Virus record (IMG/VR): IMGVR_UViG_3300034128_000004
Span: 1 to 41,041 of that record
Origin: a virus
Taxonomy: Duplodnaviria; Caudoviricetes
Reading direction: 5' to 3' (one strand)
Length of the DNA stretch: 41,041 nucleotides
The translations under genes and the position numbers were made by a program. The notes under the pieces are model-generated. The model was not told the DNA's origin, did no database searches, and saw only the letters and a list, made by a program, of their open reading frames with translations. Below are positions 1,190 to 40,493 of the stretch, in pieces (the first letter of the stretch is position 1; every line of letters begins with the position of its first letter).

Positions 1190-1563
1190 TTGTTATTGAC
1201 GGTGAAACCTTCCAAGTGCCGATACTGAGTATCAAACGTAAAGCCGATTTCCTTGACAAGTACGCGGAGCGCACAGAGGATGGTGTGCTGCATAGGGAAC
1301 TGATTGGAGTTTATTTCAATTATGAACTCGCATTCGGGCGCACCGCGGAGCTTTCCGAATACGCCTCACTCTGGGCAAAGCTCACCGAAGCCGAAGAATT
1401 CCACGAAGTAACCGTGCCTGACTTCGACGGCACAGGAGGACAATATACGTTTCAGGCATATTTCGCGGGTGTGTCAGATGAGCTTCGAAAGGAATCAGCA
1501 ACACAGACATTTTGGAAAAATCTTGTTGTTAACTTTATTGCTCAGAGTCCTGCAATCACATGA
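1186..1563 (+). CDS. Putative distal tail protein
   Basis: 125 aa, ATGA-coupled directly after TMP; RTEDGVLHRELIG motif typical of this position. Confidence 0.6.
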   Translation: MIVIDGETFQVPILSIKRKADFLDKYAERTEDGVLHRELIGVYFNYELAFGRTAELSEYASLWAKLTEAEEFHEVTVPDFDGTGGQYTFQAYFAGVSDELRKESATQTFWKNLVVNFIAQSPAIT

Positions 1564-3311
1564 GCACAAAACCTATTGTCATTCCGGTGCATCAGGAAGC
1601 GATAACGATAAAAGCGGATGCGTCTTTCGCGTTGACCGCGGGAACGTTGCAGGCATTTTCGGACCTTGATGACCTACTCTTGCCCGCGGCGGTTTCCAAT
1701 CCTTATGCAACGTATGAGCCTGATTTTTGGTTACTTGATGGCAGTATGAAGTTTATGCCTGCATCGCCTCATGTGGGATTAATGGGTAATGTTCAAACAG
1801 ACAGCAACGGCGAAGATACGGGCCTTATAACAATAACTATAACGTTTGGCTCAACTCACTCCACAAGCGGATTAACTTTATATTTTTCGGAACACACTAA
1901 CGATTTTGCGGATTTTATACGGGTGTATTTCTATGATGCGTCAAACGCCCTAATACGAACAGACAACTACACCCCAACAACTTATGTTTTTTCGACAAAT
2001 CAGGCAGTAAGTAATTTCAAAAAAATAATAATCGAATTCGTAGGAACAAACAAGCCGTATCGATATATTCGCCTCACCGGAATCGACCTCGACGCGCTCA
2101 CCGTGTTTCAGGGTGATTCGGTTCGCGCCGCGCGGATAGTGGAACAAATCAACCCACTGTCAACTGAGTTACCGATCAATGAATTGGACTTAACTTTATT
2201 TAGTGCCGATGGTGATTTCTCCATCGTTGACCCGCAAGGATTTTACGCCAACCTGCAATATAAAGAACCGTTGGACGTGTACGAAGATTTGAACGGTGAG
2301 ATTATTTACATCGGGCGGTTTTATGTGGAAACGTGGGAAAGCAAAAGCGAAAACGAAGCAACTTTTGAATGCGTTGACGCGTTGGGTGTGAAAGAAATTT
2401 CCGAAACGAATTACTACACCACTCAGGAAGGCGTATGGATCAATAAGGACTTCGAAGATATTGTTGCTGAAATATTGGACAGCACAAATTTTGAATATGA
2501 GATTGATGCAAGTTTACTTGGTATCGGTATCTATGGCTGGCTCCCGCTTATGTCGAAACGTGAAGCATTGCAACAGATTGCTTTTACCGTTGGCGCGTAT
2601 GTGACATGTGCAAGGTCCAACAAGATACAAATCAAACCGTTTGAGCTTGCATCTGATTTGGTTACGTTTGATCACACTTTCACCGGCGCGCAAAAGGGTA
2701 TATCATCCCCGGTTGCCATGCGGCCATTGGTAACGGGTGTGAGAATTTTGACAAGTCGCTATCAATATCTGGCGGTTGATAAGATTGTTTTCGATGGCTA
2801 CCTGCCGCTTGGAGCGCATGTCATCCACATGCCCGATGGTGTTATTCTTGAAGTGGGAACCCAAAGCGCCGGCGCGGGCGTGAAAACTGATTTCTTTCCG
2901 GGTGCAAATCATATACCCTTGACGGTGACAACCGCGGGCACGTTTGAATTTACAGCACAAACTTATTACGAACGTGTGACCTCTCCCGCGGCATTAAATA
3001 ATGGATCACTGCCCGCGGGCACTCCGACAAATGTGATTAATATCGATGATGCCACTCTCGTTACGAGTGGAATTACTACCAATCAATATGCAATTGTTGA
3101 TGATGTAATTCAGCGGGTATATGACTATTATCAGCAGAGGTACATTCAAAAGACAAAACTCTTTGCCTCCCTCGTGGCGGTTGGTGACAGTGTTTTGATT
3201 GCAACTCAATCAGGCAGGCAGATAGCAGGCATTGTTGAACGTATGGAAACGGATTTAGCTGGTGGGTTTGTGTCTGATTTGGAAATTGTTGGTATCGTGG
3301 TGCCACTATGA
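1560..3311 (+). CDS. Tail tip / baseplate hub protein
   Basis: 583 aa, beta-rich, second gene after TMP. Confidence 0.6.
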   Translation: MSTKPIVIPVHQEAITIKADASFALTAGTLQAFSDLDDLLLPAAVSNPYATYEPDFWLLDGSMKFMPASPHVGLMGNVQTDSNGEDTGLITITITFGSTHSTSGLTLYFSEHTNDFADFIRVYFYDASNALIRTDNYTPTTYVFSTNQAVSNFKKIIIEFVGTNKPYRYIRLTGIDLDALTVFQGDSVRAARIVEQINPLSTELPINELDLTLFSADGDFSIVDPQGFYANLQYKEPLDVYEDLNGEIIYIGRFYVETWESKSENEATFECVDALGVKEISETNYYTTQEGVWINKDFEDIVAEILDSTNFEYEIDASLLGIGIYGWLPLMSKREALQQIAFTVGAYVTCARSNKIQIKPFELASDLVTFDHTFTGAQKGISSPVAMRPLVTGVRILTSRYQYLAVDKIVFDGYLPLGAHVIHMPDGVILEVGTQSAGAGVKTDFFPGANHIPLTVTTAGTFEFTAQTYYERVTSPAALNNGSLPAGTPTNVINIDDATLVTSGITTNQYAIVDDVIQRVYDYYQQRYIQKTKLFASLVAVGDSVLIATQSGRQIAGIVERMETDLAGGFVSDLEIVGIVVPL

Positions 3312-3333
3312 TTTTTACTCAGTATGGTGCTGC

Positions 3334-3840
3334 ATGGCTTATGTGACCGCGGTGACAAACAGAACCGCCGCGTCGTTCTGGAATGTTGCCGATTGGGCCC
3401 GCGTCTATGGCAACTCTCAGTTAGTTAGTGCGTTAGCTGAGATTGAATTAGGATCACCGATTGCATTTACCTCACTCACCGCGCCAACGATCACGACAAT
3501 TCCCGCGGTTGCTGATTTCAATTTGTTTTTAGCAAACATCGAAAACATCCGTGTGGCGGTTGTTGGTGAATCCATCCCTGGCACATTGATTGCAATCAAG
3601 GATGATTGGGAAGCGGGACCTGACAAAACCTCCCTGTCGTATGGACATGCAAACCTTTGGGAATCTACCCTTGATGCAATTTGGAGTTATTACAACGGTG
3701 CATCTCTACCCGTATGCCCAATACTGAGTAGCGATCTAACAATCACCACAGGGAACACTTATATCGTTGTCGATTGCTTGGATGCCAACGGATTCAACAT
3801 CACCATTCAGGACGGCGCAACACTGGCAATTATTCCATAG
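3334..3840 (+). CDS. Putative tail-tip structural protein
   Basis: Start MAYVTAVTNRT chosen; position in the tail module. Confidence 0.5.
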   Translation: MAYVTAVTNRTAASFWNVADWARVYGNSQLVSALAEIELGSPIAFTSLTAPTITTIPAVADFNLFLANIENIRVAVVGESIPGTLIAIKDDWEAGPDKTSLSYGHANLWESTLDAIWSYYNGASLPVCPILSSDLTITTGNTYIVVDCLDANGFNITIQDGATLAIIP

Positions 3841-3848
3841 GAGCTTTT

Positions 3849-4490
3849 ATGACATCAAACTTTGTTTTCAATGGCGTGACATATACAAAACTTATACAGG
3901 TGGATGGATGGATTCCCGTTTCCGACTCTTGGACCTATGCAAGTGCAATAACAATAAATGTACCATCGGATGCAACTACGATCTATAAAAAAGGTTGGGG
4001 CATTCGCTGGAAACAAGGTGGCGCGTATAAGTATGGTGTGATTGGAGCGTTGACGGCTACCCTGCTGACCCTGATTTCCACATCTGATTACACTGTGGCG
4101 AATAGCGCAATCACTGATGTAGCTGTTGCCCCAAACCCAAGTAGTGCGCTCGGTTTTCCTGCTCAATTCGTTTTCGCAAAAACCTATACCGGATTCAGTA
4201 CTGACCCTGTGCAAACCGTGACATGGAGCACGATAGGAAACCGCATATTTTATGGTATTGCCACAGCATCAAACGGGACAAGCAATGCAACAGGATACAC
4301 AATGTCTCTGGCAATCGCGGTTCTTACTGCTGTTATTGGCTACGCCAATGTTCGCGACAACGGAACGGAAAAAGCTGGCACCGGGTACGCAACGGGAACC
4401 ACTCTCACCTATTACAACGGTGTGTTCGGAGTGGCATTTACAAACAGCGGCTCCAAGGGCGGTGCAATGCAATTGAATTATTTGTTCTAA
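3849..4490 (+). CDS. Putative tail fibre / receptor-binding protein
   Basis: AGGAG RBS before ATG 3849; Thr/Gly/Ser-rich beta protein; last gene of the tail operon. Confidence 0.5.
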   Translation: MTSNFVFNGVTYTKLIQVDGWIPVSDSWTYASAITINVPSDATTIYKKGWGIRWKQGGAYKYGVIGALTATLLTLISTSDYTVANSAITDVAVAPNPSSALGFPAQFVFAKTYTGFSTDPVQTVTWSTIGNRIFYGIATASNGTSNATGYTMSLAIAVLTAVIGYANVRDNGTEKAGTGYATGTTLTYYNGVFGVAFTNSGSKGGAMQLNYLF

Positions 4491-4500
4491 CTCCGACAAT

Positions 4501-5445
4501 TCACAACCGCCACATATCCACAGGACTTGCACGGGCATGGGCGGCGGCAATATCAGTTTTCACCAGGTCTAAATATCTCCGCGTCATATCTAACGTCTGA
4601 TGTCCCAATAATCTTTGCAGCGTGAACACATCCCCGCCATTGCGGAGATACGATATCGCGAAGGTGTGACGGAACTTGTGAGGATGTGCATGATGCACTT
4701 TGGCGTTTGCGCCTATCCGTCTAATGGCAAGGCGTATCGATGCTGCTTGTAATTCAAACAGTGATTGCGATTGGTCCGATGCTGCTTGTTGCTTTGCTGT
4801 ATATTTCCAAATCGCCTGGCGGGTACGAGCACCTAAGAACACTGTCCGCGCGGAGCTTTTCCTTCCGTCACGATACGGCCTGACATACACTTCCCCATTT
4901 TCGAGATTGACATCTCCGATCTTCAACCGTCGCAGCTCACCGAGTCTTATTCCGGTGTCAAGTAATATCAGGATAATTGCTTTGTCTCTGTCCGCGTTGG
5001 GACGTTTGATTTTATAAGTCCTCCCTGATTGCTTGACCACTTGTGTATATTGACTTGCATCTATAAGTCTCTTAACTTCATCCTGGCTAAATGGCACAAT
5101 TTGCGGTGACTGATATTTGGGCCGTGGCAAATCAAGGTCAGGGCGATTAATACTCAGTATTGTTGCCATGCAGTTATAAAATCCCCTTATCGTTTTCCAA
5201 TGGTTGTCAATTGTGGATAATGCCAACGGTGACTTATCACCGCTAAACCGCTTGGGTTTGTAATCGGTGCGAAGATGCACCATGTACCGTTTCCAATCTT
5301 CAGGAGTGAGGCTGTCAACTTCCGGATCATGAAAATACTTGCACATATATCCAAGTTGACTTTCCATCGTGGGGATATACGCGGGTGAATATAACCCTGA
5401 TTTCGCCTCAAGTACAAATCCTTCAATGGCTTTTGAAAGTTTCAT
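4501..5445 (-). CDS. int: Tyrosine recombinase (phage integrase)
   Basis: Catalytic motifs DTGIRLGEL, HPHKFRHTFA, LLGHQTLDMTRRY; adjacent attP; start could extend to 5490. Confidence 0.93.
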   Translation of the reverse strand: MKLSKAIEGFVLEAKSGLYSPAYIPTMESQLGYMCKYFHDPEVDSLTPEDWKRYMVHLRTDYKPKRFSGDKSPLALSTIDNHWKTIRGFYNCMATILSINRPDLDLPRPKYQSPQIVPFSQDEVKRLIDASQYTQVVKQSGRTYKIKRPNADRDKAIILILLDTGIRLGELRRLKIGDVNLENGEVYVRPYRDGRKSSARTVFLGARTRQAIWKYTAKQQAASDQSQSLFELQAASIRLAIRRIGANAKVHHAHPHKFRHTFAISYLRNGGDVFTLQRLLGHQTLDMTRRYLDLVKTDIAAAHARASPVDMWRL

Positions 5446-5530
5446 AGGATTGCGCGCACCTTTCCTGTAAAAAGATGCCAACCCTGACACGTTTCCTCAC
5501 CCCACGGGGATAGGTATAAAGGACACCTTG

Positions 5531-5571
5531 CGCCCCTGCACAGACTCGAACTGTGCTCTTCGGCTCCGGAG
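5531..5571 (-). other. attP core = 3' half of tRNA-Arg(CCG)
   Basis: Minus strand CTCCGGA (anticodon loop) GCCGA AGAG CACAG-TTCGAGT-CTGTG (T arm) CAGGGGC G; 5' half absent; next to integrase. Confidence 0.8.
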
Positions 5572-5684
5572 GTGCAGGGGTACGCACCTGCTGAGACTGA
5601 ATAGAAACCTATGCACTTAGAGATGGGACGAATGCCAGGGTTGCATTTTATATTTTGCAAGGACTAGTAACATGATACTGAGTA

Positions 5685-5846
5685 TCAGGGTGTGGGTATT
5701 GCCGTGAGAATTACATCTGGATTACCTATCACTGAGCCAGATAAAAGACATACAGCACCTATGCCAACCAATAAGCAAAAGAGACATAAACCAATTGCCA
5801 GAATGATTCCGGTTGTACCCGTGAAGAATTTTAGAAATGTGTCCAC
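5685..5846 (-). CDS. Small membrane protein (53 aa) in the lysogeny module
   Basis: GGGAGG RBS + GTG; MDTFLKFFTGTTGIILAIGLCLFCLLVGIGAVCLLSGSVIGNPDVILTAIPTP; below the ORF-track size cutoff. Confidence 0.6.
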   Translation of the reverse strand: MDTFLKFFTGTTGIILAIGLCLFCLLVGIGAVCLLSGSVIGNPDVILTAIPTP

Positions 5847-5857
5847 GATCTACCTCC

Positions 5858-6423: not shown

Positions 6424-6452
6424 TTGACAAGACTAGTCTAGTCTAGTATAGT
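6424..6452 (+). promoter_or_regulatory. Rightward sigma70 promoter (early/lytic)
   Basis: TTGACA 6424-6429, 17-bp spacer, TATAGT 6447-6452. Confidence 0.75.
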
Positions 6453-8095: not shown

Positions 8096-8376
8096 CCAAC
8101 ACTCTTGCATACACCGAAGTTACCAAACTTCCGAAGCTCACGCCCAATCTGCAAACGCTGCAACTCGCAGAAGCCTATTGGAAACGGACACACGCTGAAG
8201 CCGGATCACAGAAAGAGCAAGCATGGCGCGATTACAACGATGCGGTTGATAAGGGTTTACCGTACACGCTGATTTCTCAAATGTTTGGAACCGCAATACT
8301 TTTTGATGAGATCTGCAAAGATACGTTCCGCGAATGGGAACAGGCAAAGCGAAACCTATTGGACTTGTACAACTGA
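8092..8376 (+). CDS. Hypothetical protein
   Basis: 94 aa, GTGA-coupled. Confidence 0.6.
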   Translation: MTNTLAYTEVTKLPKLTPNLQTLQLAEAYWKRTHAEAGSQKEQAWRDYNDAVDKGLPYTLISQMFGTAILFDEICKDTFREWEQAKRNLLDLYN

Positions 8377-8474
8377 TACTCAGTATTGTTACTAGGAGGC
8401 ACTATCGGAATAAGCACAACCAACTTTCATTCACCAATTCAAACTATTCAAACCAAAACACCAGGAGAACCAAA

Positions 8475-9230
8475 ATGTTAGAACAGACTCAAGAAAAAGA
8501 ATTCGATCCCTTTGACCAAGCCTCCAATCCCCCCGAGCGCACCTTTGACCTTTTCGGAAAAGTGGAAATCACCGCTTGGGCGTGTGGTCTCGTGAAAGGT
8601 CAAGGCAAGGTGCCTTTCGATCCTGCACAGCACAAATCCCGCCTCACGGCTATTGATGTGTTCATTCAGCCTTTGCCCGAAATTGACATCAAGTATCCAA
8701 AATCCCTGGAAGATCACTGGATTGCGGAATTTACCGAATGGGCCAAGATCACGCTCCCTTCCATCAAGGCTTTGGGCGTTGATAACGTCCGCGAAATCAA
8801 CGGCAAGTTTGCCCGCGTGACGAAAGTGCCGAACGGGAAACAGTACGCCGCGAAGGATGTCTCAGGCAACCCCACGGGCGAAATGAAGAACGAACTCACG
8901 ATGAAGTTTGTTCAATTCTTTGCTGATGAAGAGTCCTGCCGTGCCGCATATCTCGCCGCTGGTGGTGCTCCCTCCAATGGCAACGGTCACAACGTACCCG
9001 CGGCAGTGGCACCGAGCAGTGATGAGCAGGGAAGAAAAACCGCCCTTCAGTTTCTTGAAATCATCGTCAAGAACACAGCATTGAAATCGGACAATTGGGA
9101 AGAGGTGAAAGCTCTTATCGCCGTGGCCGTTGCCCAATATCCCGATGTTATTGAAAAATATTACACGGCGGACTCCCCGGAAACCCACGACCTGATGACC
9201 AAATTCAACGCAAAGCTACTTCCCTTCTAG
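8475..9230 (+). CDS. Hypothetical protein, possibly ssDNA-binding
   Basis: AGGAG RBS; C-terminal LPF as in SSB tails; recombination module context. Confidence 0.5.
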   Translation: MLEQTQEKEFDPFDQASNPPERTFDLFGKVEITAWACGLVKGQGKVPFDPAQHKSRLTAIDVFIQPLPEIDIKYPKSLEDHWIAEFTEWAKITLPSIKALGVDNVREINGKFARVTKVPNGKQYAAKDVSGNPTGEMKNELTMKFVQFFADEESCRAAYLAAGGAPSNGNGHNVPAAVAPSSDEQGRKTALQFLEIIVKNTALKSDNWEEVKALIAVAVAQYPDVIEKYYTADSPETHDLMTKFNAKLLPF

Positions 9231-9539: not shown

Positions 9540-9749
9540 ATGCCAACCACACACAACCATAAAAACTTATGGACCCAACAAAGAACATTGATACGAATTG
9601 CACCAGCGAAGGAAACCGTTAGTTGCTGGCGATGTAGACGGGAAGTCCATCCCAACGTGATTGATACCGATTTCACTTCCAATCCGTTGCGCGTTTGTCC
9701 GATGTGTCATTCCATTATTCAGGAAACTAAACCATGTCCTCAATCGTAG
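9540..9749 (+). CDS. Small zinc-finger protein
   Basis: CWRC...CPMC. Confidence 0.5.
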   Translation: MPTTHNHKNLWTQQRTLIRIAPAKETVSCWRCRREVHPNVIDTDFTSNPLRVCPMCHSIIQETKPCPQS

Positions 9750-10504
9750 CTGTAACCATTGCCAACACCGAACCGGATTATTTCAAGAACCTGAAATTCG
9801 GCGGCGTGCCAAAAATGATAGATCACGATCCCAAGGCGTTTGACGTTCTGGCGTTGACCGATGACGGATGCACTCTTGTATTCGAGCGCAAGACCGCAGG
9901 GGATTTTCTCAACACGTTGAAAGAAGAGAGACTCTTCCCGCAGTTGGCGAGAATGACCGAACATCGAAACGCACAGCACGCAAACGGCGAACCGCTGACA
10001 CATTGGGCATATCTGATTATCACAGGTCAATTCCTCCCTGGACCTGATGGCAAAGTTTCTGCCGATGGACGGGAAACCGGATGGTCATTTGCCAGTGTGC
10101 AAGGAACGATACTCAGTATCGAGGAAATGGGCGTATTCATTGTTTGGTGCAACGGAGATACCGACTTCGAAGATTGCATCTTGCGAATCGGCAAACGGGA
10201 CAGGAACCCACAGACGAAGATCACGGCACCACGACCAGCGCGCAACTTAGGACCGAAGATAGATTTTCTCACCGGCATTCCTGGCGTGGGCGTGGAGAAC
10301 GCACAAACCATTTTAGAAAAGTCTGGTGACAATCTCGCTCACGCTCTTGTTGGTCTTACTGGTACGGAGATTAAGTCGCCAATTGGATTATCACTTCGCA
10401 GACGGTTTAGAAGCCTTCTCGGATTGCAAGACTGTGAAAGTCTGGAAATTGTTGGAACGCAAATTGAAGAACAAATTATGCAAGGAGAAAAAACACATGC
10501 CTAA
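9734..10504 (+). CDS. ERCC4/XPF-family nuclease with helix-hairpin-helix
   Basis: FERKTAGDF (ERKxxxD) motif; LTGIPGVGVENA HhH. Confidence 0.8.
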   Translation: MSSIVAVTIANTEPDYFKNLKFGGVPKMIDHDPKAFDVLALTDDGCTLVFERKTAGDFLNTLKEERLFPQLARMTEHRNAQHANGEPLTHWAYLIITGQFLPGPDGKVSADGRETGWSFASVQGTILSIEEMGVFIVWCNGDTDFEDCILRIGKRDRNPQTKITAPRPARNLGPKIDFLTGIPGVGVENAQTILEKSGDNLAHALVGLTGTEIKSPIGLSLRRRFRSLLGLQDCESLEIVGTQIEEQIMQGEKTHA

Positions 10505-10799
10505 ACATACGCCGGGACCGTGGAGTATTGGAAAACATAGCAGTGTTATTGTCGCTAATGATGAATTCAATGATGACCCTGACGGAGTTGTTCAGTATTA
10601 CGGTGGCGATGTAATTTGTGAATCAATGTGCAAAGAAGATGCTCACCTTATCGCCGCGGCTCCTGAGTTGTTGGAAGTGTGCGAGGGAATAATCATGTTC
10701 CCCGATGTCAAGTATTGCCTGATGGAAAAATTCCCCGGACTTGTTACCCAAATCGAAACCGCAATTGCCAAAGCAAAAGGAGAAACCAATGGCAACTAA
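10497..10799 (+). CDS. Conserved phage hypothetical protein
   Basis: KHTPGPW...LIAAAPELLE...AIAKAKG signature; AGGAG RBS. Confidence 0.75.
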   Translation: MPKHTPGPWSIGKHSSVIVANDEFNDDPDGVVQYYGGDVICESMCKEDAHLIAAAPELLEVCEGIIMFPDVKYCLMEKFPGLVTQIETAIAKAKGETNGN

Positions 10800-11547
10800 A
10801 AAAGAAATCACCAAACACGAAGAAACCGCAATTGTGCCAACCGCCGCGACACGCGAACTCACCCCAGGCATTTGGGCAATGATCGAACGTATGGCACCCG
10901 TCATGTACAAAGCACATTTGTTCGGCGTGACAACACCAGAACAGGCAGCCGCGATCATGCTGAAAGGTTATGAATGCGGGTTTTCGATTACTGCCAGTTT
11001 TGAATTTGTTCAAGTGATTGATGGAAAACCAACAGTCAAACCTATGGGACAAATGGCGCTTTTGCACAGTAACCCACTGGTGAAAGAAATCAAAATCACC
11101 CGCTTGGAAGATAAGGGGAAGTTTATTGGGTACGAATGTTTCATGGAACGCATTAATGGTTTTTCAAGTACGGCCCAATTCACCCTCGAAGATGCAACTC
11201 GCGCGGGGCTGATGAAACCCCAATCCGGTTGGATGAAATATCCGGAAAATATGTGCAAGTGGCGCGCCATTGGATTTGCTGCTGACATTGTGTTTCCTGA
11301 TGTGACCGCGGGAATGACAACCTTAATGAAAATGCCGGAAGCCTTTGGAATGGCCTTGACCGAGGGCGGCGACGTGATTGAGGCAACCGCAACGAGCGTG
11401 AACGTGGACCCGCTGCAGGAGCTGGTTACTCAGTATGGTGCTGAGGCGGTCATGCAGGCAAACAACGGTGCAATTCCTATGATGCTCACAGAGGTTGAAG
11501 AGGTACGGCGTAAGTTGGAAGCAAGCAAAGAGAATGTAAACGGGTAA
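10789..11547 (+). CDS. RecT/Redbeta-like single-strand annealing protein
   Basis: VIDGKP, FTLEDATRAGL, WMKYPENMCKWRA, FPDV motifs. Confidence 0.7.
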   Translation: MATKKEITKHEETAIVPTAATRELTPGIWAMIERMAPVMYKAHLFGVTTPEQAAAIMLKGYECGFSITASFEFVQVIDGKPTVKPMGQMALLHSNPLVKEIKITRLEDKGKFIGYECFMERINGFSSTAQFTLEDATRAGLMKPQSGWMKYPENMCKWRAIGFAADIVFPDVTAGMTTLMKMPEAFGMALTEGGDVIEATATSVNVDPLQELVTQYGAEAVMQANNGAIPMMLTEVEEVRRKLEASKENVNG

Positions 11548-12246: not shown

Positions 12247-12561
12247 ATGAATAAAGCGCAAAAACTGGCAAGACAACTGCAACTGAAAGCTCAATCCCGT
12301 GGTTGGCGTGAGATTGCCGAACAGGATTATGACGGGAAAATCCATTTTTCTGTTTTGAACAAGATTGCAAAATCCGATGGTGCTTATGTACCCGCCGATC
12401 ATGCTACTCAGTATCTACTCGGACTGTACAAGCCGAGACCGATCACGCCCAAGACCATTATCAATGATGACCGCGGGCAATCATGGACGTTGTACATGAG
12501 AAGTCTTATCAGGTCCATTCGGACGGAAACGCCGAAAGAACTATCACGGAGGAAATCATGA
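12247..12561 (+). CDS. Hypothetical protein, possibly HTH
   Basis: GWREIAEQ...IHFSVLNKIAK pattern. Confidence 0.5.
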   Translation: MNKAQKLARQLQLKAQSRGWREIAEQDYDGKIHFSVLNKIAKSDGAYVPADHATQYLLGLYKPRPITPKTIINDDRGQSWTLYMRSLIRSIRTETPKELSRRKS

Positions 12562-12845
12562 GCACATACCAAAGAGCAGTAAGACAGCTTGAAAAAGCAT
12601 TAAGTGGGTTGAACGAACAGCAACAGCATGAATACTTTGCATCTGGGCGGGTTTTTGTTGGTCACGTTGATTTGGCAGAGGAGCGCCCAGACGGAACAAG
12701 ATTTATCAAGCGTTGGTTTGTTGCGAAAATACGCGGTGTCATTGTTGGCAATCCCGGCGAATGGAAACATGAAACTTATCAAGGTGCTTTGGATTACGGG
12801 CACGACATCTTGAAACAGTGGAAAGATGAGCTGAGGAAGTCATGA
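12558..12845 (+). CDS. Hypothetical protein
   Basis: GGAGG RBS; ATGA-coupled. Confidence 0.6.
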   Translation: MSTYQRAVRQLEKALSGLNEQQQHEYFASGRVFVGHVDLAEERPDGTRFIKRWFVAKIRGVIVGNPGEWKHETYQGALDYGHDILKQWKDELRKS

Positions 12846-13663
12846 CCAAATGCACGTTATCTCCCGATGGCGGCGGCATTGCGATAAAGACGCCGTATGA
12901 TCCCGGCTTTGTTGCGGACCTGAAGAACGCAATCCCAAACACGGATAGACGATACGAGCCGAAAACAAAACGATGGATTGTCACGCCGGCGCATGGCGCA
13001 ACACTGCAAAATCTCTGCAATAAGTATTTTGGTGAATTGCCACTACTGCCGCAAATTGCAAATGTCAAGCCAGTTATCAAACAAAAGATTCTTGATGTTC
13101 TTTACATCGGTGCAACGAAAGACCGCGGGACTGATGAACGTTCAGCCTATGGATGGTATCAAGATGGTTGGAATGTGATTTTCACAGAAACCGTTTTGCG
13201 TGCGTGGTTTGATGCTCCCGCGTACCCGGATGAAAAACAGACTCTTTACTCAGTATTGGCGGTTGCACGGAATGCGACTACAGACGAAATCAAAGCTGGT
13301 TACAAACGCATGGCTCTCCAATGGCATAGTGACGTTTGTAAAGAGCCTAACGCCCATGAGCAAATGTTAGCAATCAATCATGCTTACGACATACTGAGTA
13401 AAAATCGGGAACGCTATGACGCAGGCTTGGCACTTGAAGCCAGTTTGAAAAACAACACGCCAAAGAGTTTTGATGCCTCACGTTTCACGGGCTATCGATC
13501 ACCGCTGAGATGCGGGTTGATCATGTGCGAAGGTATCGAATCGCTGGGTAAGTTTCAGGTTTCTAAAATCTTCGCATGGCAGGACATCACCGACGCCCAC
13601 GGGCGGGTGCTGGTTGTCAGTTGGAAAGCTGGCGCGGATCACTTTGAAGAAATTTGGGCATAG
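12842..13663 (+). CDS. J-domain protein (HSD variant) with N-terminal HARP-like segment
   Basis: LYSVLAVARNATTDEIKAGYKRMALQWHSDV...INHAYDILS; N-terminal TPYDPGFVADLK...RRYEPKTKRWIV. Confidence 0.75.
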   Translation: MTKCTLSPDGGGIAIKTPYDPGFVADLKNAIPNTDRRYEPKTKRWIVTPAHGATLQNLCNKYFGELPLLPQIANVKPVIKQKILDVLYIGATKDRGTDERSAYGWYQDGWNVIFTETVLRAWFDAPAYPDEKQTLYSVLAVARNATTDEIKAGYKRMALQWHSDVCKEPNAHEQMLAINHAYDILSKNRERYDAGLALEASLKNNTPKSFDASRFTGYRSPLRCGLIMCEGIESLGKFQVSKIFAWQDITDAHGRVLVVSWKAGADHFEEIWA

Positions 13664-13674
13664 GAGAATCTACG

Positions 13675-14316
13675 ATGAACGAAAATAAAGATATTACAAA
13701 TTATCCATTGTCATGGCCGGTCAACCAAGAACGAACAAAACCGAACGAACGAGAGCGCGCAAGATTCGGCACGCGCGGCGGTGTCAATTATGGCGGTAAC
13801 TATGTCTCAGGACGCAAGCACACTATCTCAGAAAGTGCGCGAGAACTGGAATTAGAAATCCGTCGCATGAGTGGGCACGATATGGTTATTTCATCAAACC
13901 TAAAAGTAAAAGCAAACGGATTGCCATATTCCAATCAACGCACTCCCGATGATCCGGGCGTTGCGGTTTATTTCAATTGGCACAAACGGGATTTAGTTTT
14001 TGCTTGTGACAAGTGGTTATCTATCGAAGATAACCTGTGGGCAATCGTCAAGCACATTGAAGCCTTGCGCGGTCAAGAGCGTTGGGGCGTGGGAAGTTTA
14101 GACCAAGCGTTTGCAGGGTATGCAGCATTGCCCGACCCCGATCAAAAACAATGGTGGGAAGTGTTGCACGTTGCACCTACCGCGAATAATGGTGAGATAC
14201 GCAATGCTTATTTACATCTTGTCAAGCAGTACCATCCCGATCATGGCGGTGATGCTGTAATGTTTGACCAAGTGCAGAAGGCTTATGACTCGGCAACAGG
14301 AAAGGCGCAATCATGA
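13675..14316 (+). CDS. Phage DnaJ-domain protein
   Basis: C-terminal WWEVLHV...EIRNAY...YHPDHGGD; AGGAG RBS. Confidence 0.85.
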   Translation: MNENKDITNYPLSWPVNQERTKPNERERARFGTRGGVNYGGNYVSGRKHTISESARELELEIRRMSGHDMVISSNLKVKANGLPYSNQRTPDDPGVAVYFNWHKRDLVFACDKWLSIEDNLWAIVKHIEALRGQERWGVGSLDQAFAGYAALPDPDQKQWWEVLHVAPTANNGEIRNAYLHLVKQYHPDHGGDAVMFDQVQKAYDSATGKAQS

Positions 14317-14873
14317 ACACTAATGCACTTGTCAAAGGCTCACTCTCTGCCGTTGCACAACAGAACAATCAAAGCATTGCTGAAACGTTTATCAATGCGG
14401 ATTGCATAATCATCACCGATACCTCAGGATCAATGGCGGCGGAGGATGCACGCGGCGGGAAGTCTCGCTATGATATCGCGTGTGAGGAGTTGAAGAACTT
14501 ACAAGCATCACTGCCGGGGAAGTTGGCGTTGCTCAGTTTCTCCGATGACGTGATTTTTTGCCCGTCCGGTGTGCCGTTCAATTATGGATGCGGCACGGAT
14601 CTGGCGCGCGCTTTGAAGTTTGCCAAGGTTGCCGACGTGACAGGGATTCGGTTTATCGTGATTAGTGACGGTCAACCGGACAACGAGGAAGAATGTCTCA
14701 AAGTTGCCAAGACGTTCAGGGCGCGGATAGATTGTATCTATGTGGGACCTGAAGGCGGTTCAGGTCAATCATTTCTCAATCGACTTGCCAAAGCCTCAGG
14801 CGGCCAAGGCGTAACCGCGGCGAAGGTCGCACAGCTCGCAGATAACGTGCAAAGGTTACTGCTGACATCATGA
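14313..14873 (+). CDS. von Willebrand factor A domain protein
   Basis: MIDAS DTSGS, GTDL, ISDGQPD. Confidence 0.85.
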   Translation: MNTNALVKGSLSAVAQQNNQSIAETFINADCIIITDTSGSMAAEDARGGKSRYDIACEELKNLQASLPGKLALLSFSDDVIFCPSGVPFNYGCGTDLARALKFAKVADVTGIRFIVISDGQPDNEEECLKVAKTFRARIDCIYVGPEGGSGQSFLNRLAKASGGQGVTAAKVAQLADNVQRLLLTS

Positions 14874-15091
14874 GCATCCTTGACAAATTCTTAGAACACC
14901 ACGCGCGGACTTGTACCTACTGGATTTTCTCAGGTGACAGGCATTGTTCCTGTGGGCGCGATAAGGCGTTGAAAGAACTAGAGGATTTGCGCGCGCAAAA
15001 AGCCAAGACTGATACTCAGTATAGGCTCTCCACTGGGAAGAAAGCATCAAGCGACCTTTCCGACCTTCCCATGTTCACGGAGATGCAATAA
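14870..15091 (+). CDS. Hypothetical protein
   Basis: 73 aa, coupled at both ends; HxxxC...CSC. Confidence 0.55.
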   Translation: MSILDKFLEHHARTCTYWIFSGDRHCSCGRDKALKELEDLRAQKAKTDTQYRLSTGKKASSDLSDLPMFTEMQ

Positions 15092-16389
15092 TGCCTCCAT
15101 CAAAGAAAACTCCGAAGAAATGGATCCCCGACGATGCGCAGCTCGCAGACCGTTGGATTGCTTACCATCGTCAAACTGCCTGGGGCATGGGCGAATGGCG
15201 GCGATACGAGAATGGCGTTTGGAACATAGTTAACAAAGACATTATCAAACAGGAAGTTACAAACATTCTTGAAAAGGCACAGTCTGAGAGTGTCAGAGTT
15301 ACCAACGGATTGATAAACAGCACAATGGAAATTGCCCGTACAAAGGTTTCTATCTCAAATGATAAATGGGATGCGGACCCTAACTATCTTCCATGTAAAA
15401 ACGGTGTGTACCACATACCGAGTAAAAAGCTCCTGCCTCACTTGCCCGATATTTACGCTACATCACAACTTGAATTTGATTACGATCCCGCTGCAACATG
15501 CCCCGCTTTCATGCAGGCGCTGCAACGGATTCCAGATGTGATTGATTTTCTGCAAGAGTTTTCCGGTTATGCACTTACTACCGATACCAAGCATGAGATA
15601 GCAATTTGGTTTCATGGGCCAATAGGCTCAGGCAAATCCACGATCATCGAAGGCTTACAGGTGATGGTAGGAAAGAAGCGTCACGGTATTTTGGGACTTG
15701 CACAGGTTGAACGCAGCCGCTTTGCCCTTGCCAATTTACCAGGAAAAACACTTGTCACCAGCTTTGAGCAACCAGATACCTTTATTGCAGCTTCGCACAT
15801 TCTGAACTCTATTATTTCGGGTGAGTCAATTCCTGTTGAGCAAAAATTCAAAGATGAAATTCTTATCACCCCACGGGCAAAGATCCTATGGGCAATGAAC
15901 GAACTCCCCAGAGTGAATAACGTCAACAATGGAATCATGCGGCGGGTAAAGGTTATTGAATTTCCGCCGCTATTGGAAGTTGATAAGAATGTTGATTTGA
16001 AAGAATGTGTCAAAACCGAAGGCGCAGGAATTCTTAATTGGTCCTTGATTGGTCTTGAAAGACTGATGTTGCGCGGACGTTTTGACCCTCCACAATCCGT
16101 GATAGATGCAACGAAAAACTACCAGGATAAAAACGACATTCCAAAACTATTCCTTGAAGATGTTGGAGCGTTGATTGATCCGCTTGACCCTCATTGCCGA
16201 ACTAGAGCACAGGACTTATATGATGGTTACAGCGATTGGTGCAAACGAACGAATCACAAACCAATGTCAAGTACTCGCCTTGCTGAAGAATGGAAGCGCC
16301 TAGGCTTCGAACGCATAACAATAAATGGTGTCAGATATTGGGTTGGAGTTGAATACTCACCCTTTACGGTGGCTTCCAATGTACCCTAG
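15091..16389 (+). CDS. D5-like / P4-family SF3 helicase
   Basis: D5_N-like LPCKNGVY; Walker A GPIGSGKST; MNELP, GIMRRVKVIEF. Confidence 0.88.
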   Translation: MPPSKKTPKKWIPDDAQLADRWIAYHRQTAWGMGEWRRYENGVWNIVNKDIIKQEVTNILEKAQSESVRVTNGLINSTMEIARTKVSISNDKWDADPNYLPCKNGVYHIPSKKLLPHLPDIYATSQLEFDYDPAATCPAFMQALQRIPDVIDFLQEFSGYALTTDTKHEIAIWFHGPIGSGKSTIIEGLQVMVGKKRHGILGLAQVERSRFALANLPGKTLVTSFEQPDTFIAASHILNSIISGESIPVEQKFKDEILITPRAKILWAMNELPRVNNVNNGIMRRVKVIEFPPLLEVDKNVDLKECVKTEGAGILNWSLIGLERLMLRGRFDPPQSVIDATKNYQDKNDIPKLFLEDVGALIDPLDPHCRTRAQDLYDGYSDWCKRTNHKPMSSTRLAEEWKRLGFERITINGVRYWVGVEYSPFTVASNVP

Positions 16390-16407: not shown

Positions 16408-16513
16408 ATTAAGTAGAGGGTGTAGATACTTGGCCCTATTAAGCACGCGTAGCGCGAGGAAATGTATTTCTATATACCTTAAATGGGTAAAGCCTCTACA
16501 CCCTCTACTTAAT
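16408..16513. repeat. 19-bp perfect inverted repeat, candidate replication origin
   Basis: ATTAAGTAGAGGGTGTAGA 16408-16426 / TCTACACCCTCTACTTAAT 16495-16513. Confidence 0.7.
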
Positions 16514-16536: not shown

Positions 16537-17451
16537 ATGACAACTATACATGATTTAGCACAAGTGTTCTTGAACATGGGAATAGGCGTGATACCGCTTT
16601 ATCACCGATCAAAGATGCCAATGGTTCCATCATGGCATGAGTACAACCATCGATTGCCCATTGATACTGAGTATCAGTCTTGGTTTGCCACTGACTGGAA
16701 CAATTATGCTGTCATTTGCGGATGGACTAATCTTGTCGTGATTGACTTTGACAATATTGAATACTTCAACATCTGGTGCCTGTACCATGAGTTGAATTCT
16801 ACTCAGTATGTCGCTTCAGGTTTCAAGGTCCGGACCCGGCACGGGATGCACGTGTATCTTCGCACAGTGGCACCGGCGGCCAATGATAAGAGAATCAGCC
16901 GGTCAGGTGGTATCGACGTGCAAGCTCAGTCTAAATACGTTGTCGGTCCTGGGTGCGTGCATCCGAGTGGTCATGTGTATGGACCGATTGGTGAGATGGT
17001 GTTTCCAGTGGTGCGCGATATCGAATCGGTCCTACCGCTGGACCTGTTTCCAAGAGTTGCCGCAGAGCCTGTGGAGTTTGTTGGGACAGCTCCAGAGTTT
17101 GCAAGTTGCGATACTGAGTATCAGTATGATCCCTTCCAGGCCGCCATGTTTGCCACTGGTGAGGATTTGATCACAACTATCAAACGGCGGGTGAGGATTG
17201 AAAGCCTGTTCACTGGTGTGCAACGGTCCTCTGCCGATGGACGATATCTCAAAGCTTGGTGCCCGTTTCACAACGATAAACGCTCAGGAGGAACCATGTC
17301 ATTCTGGATTGACACGGCGCGGCAATTGTGCGGTTGCCAACGGTGTGGAATGAAGCCGATGGACGCGATAAATCTATATGCTCGAATGCATAACGTTTCT
17401 GATAGTGCTGCTGTCCGTGCGATGGCTGAAGAGATTGGAGTGTGGAGATGA
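16537..17451 (+). CDS. Bifunctional primase-polymerase with C-terminal CHC2 zinc finger
   Basis: LVVIDFD, RTRHGMHVYL, YVVGPGCVHPSGHVY; CPFH...CQRC. Confidence 0.85.
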   Translation: MTTIHDLAQVFLNMGIGVIPLYHRSKMPMVPSWHEYNHRLPIDTEYQSWFATDWNNYAVICGWTNLVVIDFDNIEYFNIWCLYHELNSTQYVASGFKVRTRHGMHVYLRTVAPAANDKRISRSGGIDVQAQSKYVVGPGCVHPSGHVYGPIGEMVFPVVRDIESVLPLDLFPRVAAEPVEFVGTAPEFASCDTEYQYDPFQAAMFATGEDLITTIKRRVRIESLFTGVQRSSADGRYLKAWCPFHNDKRSGGTMSFWIDTARQLCGCQRCGMKPMDAINLYARMHNVSDSAAVRAMAEEIGVWR

Positions 17452-36578: not shown

Positions 36579-36590
36579 AGGATTTTGGCA

Positions 36591-36977: not shown

Positions 36978-37369
36978 TACCTAATGCGAACATCACAATA
37001 TACAACAAGTATCTTGATGCCCGCGCGGAGAAATTCCAACGCACGGTGGTATTTAATTGTGTGTGGCAGGGTGTAAGCGCAATATCCCGATTCAAGGAAC
37101 AGATACCTGCAAATACAATTCTAATCATGATTCCGTTTTCGTCTGGGTTGGATTACCAGGAACCAAAAGCATGGCAGGATGACAAAACGGGATGGACGTT
37201 GCAAGAAGGTGACGTGATTGTCCGCGGAATGATCACCGATGAGATTACTACTCAATATGGTATTAGGCACCTTTATGCCGAACATCAAAGCGTGGTACGG
37301 ATTGCATCTATCGCCGCGATGGACGAAGGATCACCACGCGTCCAACATTGGGAAGTGCAGGCGAAGTAA
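36974..37369 (+). CDS. Head closure / adaptor protein
   Basis: WTLQEGDVIVRG, HWEV; synteny. Confidence 0.65.
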   Translation: MIPNANITIYNKYLDARAEKFQRTVVFNCVWQGVSAISRFKEQIPANTILIMIPFSSGLDYQEPKAWQDDKTGWTLQEGDVIVRGMITDEITTQYGIRHLYAEHQSVVRIASIAAMDEGSPRVQHWEVQAK

Positions 37370-37860
37370 TGGCAAGCCTAAATTTCCTCACCGGTGATAG
37401 AGACCCTGAGTTTGGTATTCAGCAACCGAAAGATGTTGTCACGCCACTCTACACCGCGCGAAGCGTCAACGGCAAAATGGTGTTCACGTGGAACAAGAAT
37501 TTCAAAGCCAAATGGACCAACAAATATGTCACGGCTCAGGAGTTTATTGACAATGCCGTGTTGCACGATTGCGAACCTTACACGCCGCACCGTGTGGGCA
37601 TACTCGTTTTCAGTAGCATACTGGGTACCAAAATAGGTAGTGGTACTGTGTCATGGACTACGCCATACGCGCGCTATCAATATTACGGTAAGGTCATGGT
37701 TCCAAGTCCGTTTGGTGGTCCTAAAATCCTAACCAAACGCAACCTGAAATATCATGGCGGCGGCAAACGTGGCGCGTTTTGGTTTGAGCGTGCCAAAGAA
37801 GTGCATAAGGATAAATGGATTAAAGGCGCTCAGGCAATTATCACGGCAGGTAAAGCATGA
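37369..37860 (+). CDS. Neck protein (minor capsid 2 / HK97-gp10-like)
   Basis: TPYARYQYYG, GAFWFERAK. Confidence 0.75.
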   Translation: MASLNFLTGDRDPEFGIQQPKDVVTPLYTARSVNGKMVFTWNKNFKAKWTNKYVTAQEFIDNAVLHDCEPYTPHRVGILVFSSILGTKIGSGTVSWTTPYARYQYYGKVMVPSPFGGPKILTKRNLKYHGGGKRGAFWFERAKEVHKDKWIKGAQAIITAGKA

Positions 37861-38282
37861 GCGTAATTGCCGCGGTGAAAACCTTCCTACTCACTTACGA
37901 TGGTCTTGCTGATGACGCGGGCTTTTTGGTTGATGTGGTTGGCAAGACTCCTACTCAGTATGCACTCGCTCCCCTTCCGGGCAATCCGATCATCGAAACC
38001 TATGTCAACGGAAAGACTCTGAGACAATTCCCGTTTGCATTGCAAAGTCAAGAATCTATTGTTGACGAAGCCGCGAGGATTGCAAACTATGAATTTTATG
38101 AGGACTTCGCCGCGTGGATTGAAGAGGAGAACGAAACAGGATCATTGCCCATTTTGGACGCGGGCAAATCACCTGAAAGTATTGAGGTGCTAGGACAACC
38201 AATCCTTTTTGAGTTTGGCGAGAGTGGCACAGGGATATATCAAATCCAATGCAGACTAACCTATCAACAAGCCGCTCCATAA
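37857..38282 (+). CDS. Tail terminator-like protein
   Basis: YQIQCRLTY C-terminus; synteny. Confidence 0.65.
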   Translation: MSVIAAVKTFLLTYDGLADDAGFLVDVVGKTPTQYALAPLPGNPIIETYVNGKTLRQFPFALQSQESIVDEAARIANYEFYEDFAAWIEEENETGSLPILDAGKSPESIEVLGQPILFEFGESGTGIYQIQCRLTYQQAAP

Positions 38283-38935
38283 CGCGGGACCTTGCACAGT
38301 TTCACAATGTCCATCAGGGACAAACTTGTTTGCTTGTTGGCAATGGTCCAAACCTGCCTCTCACGCCTCCGCAATGGTTCAACTATCCCGCGTTCGGGAT
38401 GAACACAATTCATCTGTACCAGGATTGGAAACCAACCTATTATGCCGCGGTAGATGTGCGGCTCATGCAGGAGCACGGCGCGGATGTTATGGCACGGTTT
38501 GCAGACATTCCGAAGTTTGTTCCTACGCCAAATCTCGACAAGTGGCAAGGTGCAAACTTCCATCGTTTCTTTTTCCGTCATGGTCCTGTGTGGCGAAAAG
38601 ACCAAGGCCGTATTTGGAACCCTGACGCGCTGGAAAGAAACATTCAATATTCAAGCGTGATGCATGTAGTAATGCAGATGGCTTTTTACATGGGATTCAC
38701 AACTTTGTTGATCATCGGGATGCAACACAAACCCGGATATGCACCATATCACTTTTGGGGGCATGACCCCAAGATGGGCATAACAGACCGATTGCAGAGT
38801 TGGATTGATGGATATGAGCAGTTGGTTATTGACATGCGCGAACGTGGTGTGAAGGTTATCAATATTTCCTCAGATACCTATGTGTCTGAAAACATAATTC
38901 CCCGTGGCAATCCGCGGGATTGGAAAAACAATTAA
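38249..38935 (+). CDS. Maf / sialyltransferase-like (DUF115/CST-type) glycosyltransferase
   Basis: CLLVGNGPNL, FGMNTI, PTYYAAVD, QMAFYMGFTTLLIIGMQH. Confidence 0.7.
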   Translation: MQTNLSTSRSITRDLAQFHNVHQGQTCLLVGNGPNLPLTPPQWFNYPAFGMNTIHLYQDWKPTYYAAVDVRLMQEHGADVMARFADIPKFVPTPNLDKWQGANFHRFFFRHGPVWRKDQGRIWNPDALERNIQYSSVMHVVMQMAFYMGFTTLLIIGMQHKPGYAPYHFWGHDPKMGITDRLQSWIDGYEQLVIDMRERGVKVINISSDTYVSENIIPRGNPRDWKNN

Positions 38936-38947
38936 GGAGTCAATGCA

Positions 38948-39436
38948 ATGGCAAAAGTAAAACGTTCTGAATTTGCTTTATTTCTGGACACGACCCCGGC
39001 GGTTACAGCCGCAACTTGGAGCAGAGTAGGCGAAGGTGTGACAACCGGACTCTTGAACTACAACCCAGAAGTGACCACGGAAACATACATCCACGAGGAC
39101 ACAGGCACAACCACGTTGGAACGATACGCGCCGAACATGCCGCTTGAAGCTCAGTGCATCAACACGGACGCAATCTTTGAGTTTATCGATAATCTACGTC
39201 GCACCCGTGCCGTGGGAAGTGCCGCTGAAACTGATGCTCTTTTGGTGTACCTCTACGAAACACCAACAAGCACAGACAAATACCCGGCTGAGCTGCAGCC
39301 CGTGACAATCCAAATCGATTCATTCGGCGGCGATGGCGGCGCGACCAATCGGATCAACTTCACGATTGGTTTCCGTGGTGACCCAACGTTGGGCACGTAT
39401 GACGTAAGCTCCAACGCATTTACTGCAACCCCGTGA
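38948..39436 (+). CDS. Major tail tube protein
   Basis: YNPEVTTETYIHED, ERYAP, GDPTLGT; AAGGAG RBS. Confidence 0.8.
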   Translation: MAKVKRSEFALFLDTTPAVTAATWSRVGEGVTTGLLNYNPEVTTETYIHEDTGTTTLERYAPNMPLEAQCINTDAIFEFIDNLRRTRAVGSAAETDALLVYLYETPTSTDKYPAELQPVTIQIDSFGGDGGATNRINFTIGFRGDPTLGTYDVSSNAFTATP

Positions 39437-39437
39437 C

Positions 39438-39467
39438 AAAAGGCCCACTCTCACGGGTGGGCTTTTT
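39438..39467 (+). terminator. Intrinsic terminator
   Basis: GCCCACTC-tcac-GGGTGGGC-TTTTT. Confidence 0.75.
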
Positions 39468-39477
39468 ATAAGGTGCT

Positions 39478-39909
39478 ATGGACTCTCTCAACATCTCCAC
39501 TGGTGATAAACACATTGCAATCATGCGTGACGGCGCGTCCGTTGGTGAGCTTATCTTCAACCCTGCTGATGTGGTGTTTGCCGAAAAGTTTTACCGCTTG
39601 TACGGTGACATCCACATTCAATTTACTCAGTATCAACAACGTGCGCGGGCGTTGGAAACCAACGGCAAAAAGGACATCAACGAACTGCCTGATAATTTGG
39701 GCGAACGAATTGCACTCGCAAAAGAAGCATGTACGTTTGCCTACGAACAGATTGATATTCTTTTCGGCGTTGGTACAAGTGCAATGGTGTTCGGTGACAC
39801 GTATCTTGTCACGGCGATTGAACAATTTCTAAAAGGTGTTCAGCCGCATATTCAAACCGCACGCGCTGAGAAGATTCAGAAATACACCAACGGGAAACGC
39901 AAGCGGTGA
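39478..39909 (+). CDS. Tail assembly chaperone
   Basis: FNPAD...IDILFG; between tail tube and Gp15-like gene. Confidence 0.7.
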   Translation: MDSLNISTGDKHIAIMRDGASVGELIFNPADVVFAEKFYRLYGDIHIQFTQYQQRARALETNGKKDINELPDNLGERIALAKEACTFAYEQIDILFGVGTSAMVFGDTYLVTAIEQFLKGVQPHIQTARAEKIQKYTNGKRKR

Positions 39910-40493
39910 ATATTCTCACCGATGCCCTACCGGAAACGATCACAAGCACCAATACTGAGTATAAGATTGACTCAGACTTTAGAACCTGCTTGAAAATCAT
40001 TCTTGCGTTTGAAGATCCCGAATTGACGCCTCAGGAAAAGCAAGTAGTTTTACTCAGTATGTTGTTTATGGACATCCCGCCAAATGTGGAAGATGCAATC
40101 AAAGGTGCTATGTGGTTTCTGAATGGCGGCGCAATCAGTGAGAACGAAGATACACCGATGCGACTGTATAGTTTCGCCAAGGATGCAAATTTCATCTTTG
40201 CCGCATTCAGGCAAACGCACGGTATAGACCTGCAAACCGCCAATCTCCACTGGTGGGAATTTCTAGCTTTGTTTATGGACCTTGGGCAGGACACTACCTT
40301 TTGTCAGCTCACGGCACTTCGCAAAAGGTTGAAAACTGGCAAAGCATCAAAAGAAGAAATGCAAGCGGCGAGAGAAAATCCCGAATTGATAGATGTTCCC
40401 GATGTGGATACTCGCAGCTTGGAAGAAAAAGAAATTGCATCTGACTTTATACGCAAGGTTGAACGGGCGCGATTGAAAAGGAATCAAACCTAA
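39906..40493 (+). CDS. Gp15-family tail protein
   Basis: IDSDFR, YSFAKDANFIFAAFRQTHGIDL, LHWWEFLALF. Confidence 0.8.
   Translation: MNILTDALPETITSTNTEYKIDSDFRTCLKIILAFEDPELTPQEKQVVLLSMLFMDIPPNVEDAIKGAMWFLNGGAISENEDTPMRLYSFAKDANFIFAAFRQTHGIDLQTANLHWWEFLALFMDLGQDTTFCQLTALRKRLKTGKASKEEMQAARENPELIDVPDVDTRSLEEKEIASDFIRKVERARLKRNQT

Follow-up and report, generated by a model that had tools for sequence, protein, structure and literature searches.

A word written throughout a phage genome as the likely start site of the phage's own PrimPol-zinc-ribbon primase

The DNA analyzed here (hereafter the window) is the whole 41,041-bp virus record IMGVR_UViG_3300034128_000004 (Caudoviricetes), which carries direct terminal repeats. 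The 9-letter word TACTSAGTA (S = C or G) is dispersed over it at a density of approximately one copy per kb, and the same genome encodes a primase consisting of an AEP domain followed by a zinc-binding domain. We consider that the word likely marks the sites at which this primase starts on a single-stranded template (probability approximately 0.7). Gene calling gave 69 genes with a coding fraction of 93%, and a domain scan covered 72 open reading frames (ORFs). The features that carry the argument are as follows.

1223..40059, unstranded: 43 dispersed TACTSAGTA copies (exact match), starting at 1223, 3316, 3722, 5151, 5676, 8377, 9396, 9424, 10110, 11427, 12405, 13247, 13392, 15013, 16665, 16800, 17112, 19152, 19304, 19488, 19968, 21682, 21793, 23445, 24170, 25627, 25768, 26916, 27339, 30724, 31657, 31843, 31935, 33275, 33474, 34060, 35194, 36728, 36840, 37952, 39624, 39953 and 40051
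15013..15021, minus strand: first site to the left of the predicted origin, with TACTGAG on the bottom strand (exact match)
15091..16389, plus strand: D5-like superfamily 3 helicase (D5_N, DUF5906; domain match)
16408..16513, unstranded: predicted replication origin, an AT-rich gap between the helicase and primase genes with a 36-bp inverted repeat, GGGTGTAGA / TCTACACCC
16537..17451, plus strand: AEP primase-polymerase with a DnaG-type CHC2 zinc-binding domain, the predicted reader of the word (PF09250, amino acids 12-151; PF01807, amino acids 210-301)
16665..16673, plus strand: first site to the right of the predicted origin, with TACTGAG on the top strand (exact match)

The word is real, strongly selected and phage-specific. 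Its 43 exact copies, which reproduced every coordinate and count of a preliminary description made from the sequence alone, compare with a mean of 0.07 and a maximum of 1 in 100 dinucleotide shuffles. The center base is C in 25 copies and G in 18, and the 26 single-base variants other than these two S forms amount to only six copies in total. The site was described as asymmetric, which holds: when oriented on the C form, 40 of the 43 copies read TACTCAGTAT, nine of the copies extending to GATACTSAGTATC. The consensus of the TACTGAG strand in the window is 5'-ATACTGAGTA-3', in which three flanking positions are kept in 41/44, 44/44 and 43/44 cases. Thirty-six copies (84%) lie wholly within called genes, in frames 0, 1 and 2 in 4, 12 and 20 cases, respectively; the seven others start at 5676, 8377, 21682, 31843, 31935, 33474 and 35194. 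A codon-preserving shuffle, which the preliminary description had proposed as a check, gave a mean of 0.9 and a maximum of 5 intragenic copies in 1000 runs against the 36 observed, which favors a phage-specific signal and, together with the use of all three frames, agrees with the earlier view that selection acts on DNA. Peptides compatible with the word were also enriched (xT[QE]Y, 24 vs 2.2), so that the word was imposed on the protein sequences too. The copies show no alignment with transcription, as was also first described, since 20 lie on the gene-sense strand and 16 on the antisense strand.

The motif had been given as TACT[C/G]AGTA, whose enrichment holds but whose functional core was found to be the asymmetric 5'-TACTGAG. 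This core is invariant across 21 positive records with flanks that vary by lineage, and the palindrome is one dialect of it. Non-palindromic TACTGAG was found 338 times in 729 kb of these records vs 34 times in 662 kb of 18 negative ones, while non-palindromic TACTCAG was found 97 and 48 times, respectively. A search for a hairpin or covarying stem around the site gave one of five flank pairs above chance (P 0.027, uncorrected), and a hairpin priming signal of the ssiA or G4 type was rejected because no consistent covariation was seen. Two intergenic copies, at 5661-5689 (minus strand) and 8374-8396 (plus strand), have a common longer flank, TGATACTCAGTAT..TGTTACTAG, which may be an overlapping regulatory site. 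Strain comparison from reads gave one run (X2) that was near-identical at low cover and another (X3) that was fragmentary.

The primase is 304 amino acids long and matches PF09250 with 58 bits (cut-off 22.8). D70, D72, H105 and D127, which make up the catalytic DxD, H and D motifs, are invariant in 12 of 12 homologs. A structure model (pLDDT 78.7) was compared using Foldseek and matched the pRN1 ORF904 PrimPol (1rni, E 5e-12) as well as the zinc-binding domain of DnaG (1d0q, E 5e-4), whereas domain and fold comparison detected no PriCT/helix-bundle domain. Its specificity domain is the C-terminal CHC2 zinc ribbon. According to these matches and the model, the protein is an AEP PrimPol with a DnaG-type zinc-binding domain and predicted priming activity. 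In DnaG, zinc-binding domains are described as setting a template trinucleotide specificity, e.g., d(CTG) (PMC2978363), and TACTGAG contains CTG. AEP domains fused to zinc-binding domains are described for mobile elements (PMC5862659). At least 560 homologous proteins were found, with one partial match only among cultured phages; the primase tree, which has many weak forks, did not group the dialects cleanly.

The genes that accompany the word were examined in 18 motif-positive and 14 motif-negative records chosen by length. A block made up of genes 8334/8472, ERCC4, RecT, DnaJ, vWA and PrimPol was confined to the positives, and its further members in the window are these.

8472..9230, plus strand: linked protein with no assigned function and a beta-rich N-terminal domain (weak MCM helicase structure matches, best E 3e-3), a less likely candidate reader of the word or co-factor
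9734..10504, plus strand: linked ERCC4-domain nuclease (domain match and co-occurrence with the word), a less likely candidate reader
10741..11547, plus strand: linked RecT-like annealing protein, not found in the motif-positive records G304, G309 and G317
12842..14873, plus strand: two genes with J domains plus one vWA gene, module-linked and directly upstream of the helicase

The full-length PrimPol was present in 12 of the 18 positives and in none of the 14 negatives; five of the six other positives are themselves incomplete records (fragments of 44-57%), and the sixth, G313, is complete and only weakly enriched. Terminase and capsid queries gave 160 loci, 38 of which were enriched for the core, and the remaining 122 held 82 copies vs 145 expected. 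When loci were sampled by the primase, 29 of 31 with a full-length homolog were enriched for TACTGAG or TACTCAG (23 of 25 once the six loci whose records had gone into the query were subtracted), and 1 of 49 loci with a partial match was enriched. Another sample was collected by the vWA gene regardless of motif or primase, and 77 of its 80 loci were analyzed (L008, L026 and L245 were left out). Enrichment was observed for 46 of 54 loci having this primase. In a count by hand, 13 of the 14 loci with another primase type visible in the slot (RepB'-like with an NrS-1 helix bundle, PrimPol-PriCT-D5, or TOPRIM) were at background, the fourteenth, L357, being borderline (5 vs 1.0), and the remaining nine, which ended before the slot or were unclassified, included four motif-positive ones. 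A motif-first scan gave 105 loci, 22 of which had at least three dispersed clusters; 17 of these belonged to this phage group, and the other five were unrelated contigs, mostly with longer repeats. Companion genes came and went in motif-positive records: the helicase family varied, with VapE/VirE-type helicases standing in for the D5-like one in many relatives, and neither vWA nor the 273-amino-acid DnaJ gene was found in G380 (40,000 of 41,148 bp read). Locus L367 combines this primase with an ERCC4 gene of a word-less clade and holds 13 word copies vs 0 of a control, which for ERCC4 breaks the partial link between gene tree and primase type. Other dialects accompanied this primase in G349 and L362 (TAC(C/T)GGC words, TACCGGC in G349) and in G346 (TACCGAG).

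A different class of words was often observed where the slot holds an NrS-1-type primase. Three records (G353, G357 and G358) have a whole RepB'-like primase with an NrS-1 helix bundle there, and two more (G355 and G356), in which at most part of the primase was seen, have the same GTG-type words. The words of these five records (L489-L497) are GCTGTGTT (49 copies), TGTGGGCC (13 copies), TGTGGWCA (37 copies) and TGTGAGCC (20 and 35 copies). All dispersed words of this helix-bundle group contain GTG, and both strands are used; neighboring sites lie on opposite strands in 45 cases vs 19 on the same strand, and three records gave no clear view of their polarity. GTG is described as the core that the NrS-1 primase recognizes in vitro, with GTGA/GTGG as the stronger site (PMC8718748). 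The word type changes with the primase type in these five records, but lineage is confounded with primase type, and some primase homologs have no word.

The helicase-primase gap of the window is a predicted replication origin by analogy with P4- and SaPI-type origins, and relatives have an AT-rich gap at this position with inverted iterons of different sequence. No clear origin emerged from the GC skew of the window, which has its minimum at 10,037. Genes on both sides of the gap run in the same direction. Outside the primase ORF, the ratio of TACTGAG on the gene-sense strand to that on the other in 22 non-redundant relatives was 64:96 upstream and 114:48 downstream of the gap (Fisher P 6e-8), and 15 of 17 testable records agreed on this strand switch, which was not exhibited by control words (small counts). 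The favored strand is the predicted lagging-strand template for two forks leaving the gap, and the two sites that flank the predicted origin in the window are oriented as expected. Neighboring sites up to 500 bp apart lie on opposite strands in 15 cases vs 2 on the same strand in the window (P 0.0008), and in 128 vs 89 cases in 14 further records (P 0.004). Spacing was more even than random (Fisher-combined P 4e-6 per strand, 47 strand tests), with per-strand values of 1.6 and 2.3 kb in the window, close to the 1-2 kb given for bacterial Okazaki fragments in PMC2978363. The primase ORF has 2.7 sites per kb vs 0.88 elsewhere, partly at shared positions. Of 638 aligned comparisons at 65-75% identity, 50% had the site unchanged, vs 7% for flanking 7-mers; these comparisons are not independent, and site positions turn over among orthologs.

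These observations can be combined into the following scheme. The helicase would open the iteron-flanked origin at 16408-16513, from which two forks leave; the zinc-binding domain would read TACTGAG on the unwound template, and the AEP domain would make the primer. On either side, the leading strand of the opposite fork would start at the first site, so that 15013..15021 would prime rightward synthesis through the origin and 16665..16673 leftward synthesis, and the remaining sites would start Okazaki fragments approximately every 2 kb on each strand. Extension of the primers would fall to a host polymerase, because the scan of the 72 ORFs revealed no replicative polymerase; one ORF weakly matched a polymerase processivity factor. 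A site of 7-10 letters is too rare by chance, and selection would therefore write the word into coding sequence. As judged from the sequences compared, the word most likely behaves like a primase recognition site, outside the helix-bundle PrimPol type and the host-signature classes that were tested. A broader proposal is that one family of phages of Anaerolineae runs orthogonal priming, with the word hard-coded on both strands, Okazaki starts fixed, the primase nearly exclusive to phage DNA and the word rewritten genome-wide upon exchange of the specificity domain. We offer it tentatively, at slightly less than even odds.

Several points weigh against assigning the word to the primase. The primase is present without the word in G344 (score 348), and the more divergent G339, G340, G345, G348 and G351 have it with no TAC-type word; an integrated element in the Anaerolineae genome G105 also has it, with four word copies in 66 kb. 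Conversely, the complete G313 has no such primase and is weakly enriched in TACTGAG (11 vs 2.9). The ERCC4 and 8472 trees place the NrS-1-type phages in a clade of their own, so that lineage and primase type are partly confounded, and the relatives share ancestry, which makes the comparisons non-independent. NrS-1-type primases occur with no GTG-type word in L356/L357 and L360, and NrS-1 itself failed as a positive control, as its 37-kb genome contains a single copy of TTTGGTTA (expected 2.0); a long primase site therefore need not be iterated. The polarity of the window is weak (sense strand in 2 of 7 sites upstream and 7 of 12 downstream), and the first 12 relatives showed no significant alternation of strands (39 same vs 43 opposite, P 0.30). 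Furthermore, characterized primase sites are mostly of 3-4 letters.

The host bears on one of the other explanations, and it was approached through the integration site.

4501..5490, minus strand: tyrosine integrase (domain match), which points to a temperate lifestyle
5530..5572, minus strand: attP core, identical over 43 bp to the 3' part of tRNA-Arg(CCG) in the Anaerolineales genome G001

A 40-letter attP pattern gave a single exact match among genome contigs, namely this tRNA-Arg(CCG). This match, one module-bearing genome and one named homolog point to an Anaerolineae lineage as the probable host. The word TACTCAGTA was found in 15 copies in the 7.6 Mb of G001 (27 for the reversed control). 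None of 301 Anaerolineae genomes was enriched, each having at most 34 copies, and five genomes with attB-like tRNAs had 15, 2, 1, 3 and 1 copies; the 7-mer core was not enriched in the five genomes tested. The word thus occurs approximately once per kb in the phage vs once per Mb in the host class. G056 had 21 copies on 21 different contigs, six of which were inspected and lay in repeat-like contexts. The unrelated contigs G230:C15:294388-294647, G056, L547, L555, L576 and L535 contain longer palindromes (TGTTACTSAGTAACA, GATTACTSAGTAATC) or tandem AGTACTC repeats, within which the 9-mer is a coincidence. Among 401 genomes, one from Anaerolineae (G105) carried the same gene module: a tRNA-Lys-bounded 66-kb element (G105:C3:303234-369751; L514-L517) has the whole 8472-ERCC4-RecT-DnaJ-vWA-D5-PrimPol module and no TACTGAG enrichment. 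Comparison of this prophage with its flanks revealed no dispersed word in G105, a CACTACGA cluster being a local repeat at 315-317 kb.

The background level in the probable host lineage, where the preliminary description had proposed a count, favors a phage-specific signal and makes it scarcely credible that the phage took the word over from its host lineage as a HIP1-like signature, an uptake sequence, a host Chi or a methylation site. In favor of such an origin, the word is common to many phages of apparently one host class, and the host was called from one tRNA match and Anaerolineae homologs rather than from spacers. Related phages with other primases also lack the word. The earlier suggestion of a HIP-like signature is not supported, and that of a methylation mark fared no better, as no methyltransferase was matched in the 72 window ORFs or in 19 ORFs compared with PADLOC. 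It was further proposed that a genome-coating protein binds the site. Reading by a protein was retained; because the word follows the primase and has an origin-centered strand polarity, single-strand priming is preferred to coating of the duplex. Repressor or coating-protein sites on double-stranded DNA (stoperator-like silencing, compaction or self-marking) would suit a temperate phage that encodes XRE, RHH and LuxR regulators and has a near-palindromic site, and seven of the 43 copies lie outside called genes, including 5676 and 8377 with their common longer flank. We nevertheless regard such sites as improbable, since the candidate regulators do not follow the word, the sites have no orientation with transcription, many relatives use the non-palindromic form (counts given above), and strand polarity and alternation are not expected of a symmetric duplex binder. 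The proteins proposed earlier as binders were found as follows in the 18 positives and 14 negatives, where short proteins can be missed: XRE in 2 and 3, RHH in 0 and 0, LuxR in 5 and 1, and the ORF at 12247 in 1 and 0. XRE, RHH and LuxR were rejected as readers on these grounds.

Another reading is a polar signal of the Chi kind, serving recombination or fork restart, whose reader would be the ERCC4-type nuclease, the 8472 protein or some other linked protein instead of the primase. In its favor, these genes belong to the same module and, when relatives were first compared, were confined to the motif-positive ones; the ERCC4 and 8472 trees also partly follow the word type, and Chi sites are replication-polar as well. 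Such a signal is unlikely in our estimation, because 13 of the 14 loci that keep vWA (mostly ERCC4 and DnaJ too) with another primase type have no word, L367 retains its copies next to an ERCC4 of the word-less clade, and for each of RecT, vWA, DnaJ and helicase there are motif-positive records that lack it or have another type. A helicase or iteron site was also rejected, as the word persists among relatives whose helicase family and iteron sequences differ. Finally, mutation or gene conversion tied to the replication module might have driven the word up with little function at each site, which could account for the all-or-none match with almost no near-variants and for the turnover of positions. 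That the sites are retained far above their flanks, are evenly spaced and alter the encoded peptides renders such a drive very improbable, and recognition by the PrimPol-zinc-ribbon primase is the reading that we carry forward.

Other parts of the window and of its relatives yielded separate observations. The head genes are A118/SPP1-like in the profile scan of the 72 ORFs, and a scan for defense systems gave only generic helix-turn-helix/RHH and HNH-like matches. A near-consensus sigma-70 promoter (TTGACA-17-TATAGT) at 6424-6452 overlaps a short palindrome upstream of the RHH gene and is likely the lytic switch. GGCC, TTAA, AAGCTT, GTGCAC and GATCAG are avoided window-wide, which suggests host restriction pressure. 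The 8472 protein, for which structure comparison gave no clear solved relative, is a possible OB-fold single-strand binding protein in its model. The 273-amino-acid J gene and vWA are conserved in most relatives, and the J-domain and vWA genes possibly serve chaperone-assisted helicase loading. G313 (L175-L176) has a DnaB_2/IstB-type replication module and may be a mosaic that lost the primase. Among divergent PrimPol-zinc-ribbon phages, G340 (L434-L435) contains ATCGAGGC 12 times and ATCAAGGC 14 times, and the GC-rich G339 (L432-L433) contains ATCGAGGC 13 times vs 2 for a control. G341 (L436-L438), with an N-terminal PrimPol match only, has 53 copies of CACCGGTG in 49 kb (expected 1.7), which is probably another word-primase pair. 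In the NrS-1 genome (L509), TTTGGTTA lies at 17198, just after the primase gene, and ATAGACA (21 vs 5.0), TAGAGCC (14 vs 2.8) and GTGGACA (12 vs 2.9) are over-represented.

Primase sites are normally of 3-4 letters and common enough that no genome has to encode them; if its primase depends on a 7-10-letter word, a genome would be obliged to carry a readable map of priming sites. If this is true, Okazaki fragment length and template reading by a zinc domain become testable with one small soluble protein, and a class of highly iterated phage words is explained. Origins could be placed and primase specificities predicted from sequence for uncultured phages, and a site-specific primase would be available for synthetic replication or amplification. 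No paper describing iterated or over-represented primase sites in phage genomes was found in the open-access literature and listings, and the matches listed for the exact motif were unrelated by title and abstract start.

Among known systems, HIP1, DNA uptake sequences and Chi are short words over-represented inside coding sequence, which mark host chromosomes and, for Chi, are replication-polar; the window word differs in being at background level in the host class. The 3-letter GTG is the site of pRN1 ORF904, whose structure (1rni) is the best fold match of the window catalytic domain and whose catalytic residues are kept in the window enzyme. ORF904 is described as using a helix-bundle (PriCT-1) domain (PMC8718748, PMC5862659), which was not found in the window primase by domain and fold comparison. 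Bacterial DnaG has the same CHC2 zinc-binding fold (1d0q), for which the trinucleotides d(CTG)/d(CTA) are described in PMC2978363; the window primase differs in its AEP rather than TOPRIM catalysis, its C-terminal position of the zinc domain, and a predicted 7-10-letter site that needs active enrichment. The stoperators of mycobacteriophage Cluster A and the 17-bp repeats of Cluster O resemble the window word in that at least 30 copies of one site are dispersed over a genome; as described in PMC4351075, stoperators follow the direction of transcription and many of the Cluster O repeats lie between genes, whereas the window word is 84% intragenic, shows no alignment with transcription and accompanies a primase, not a repressor. 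NrS-1 is also a temperate phage with an AEP PrimPol, a D5-type helicase and an unusually long template site, its recognition sites being described as 5'-TTTGGTTA-3' and 5'-GTGA/GTGG-3' (PMC8718748, PMC8775771). In the window enzyme, a DnaG-type zinc-binding domain replaces the helix bundle and there is no fusion with the helicase, and its word is written 43 times vs the single copy of TTTGGTTA in NrS-1, while sister phages of the window that have the NrS-1 helix-bundle domain carry GTG-type words.

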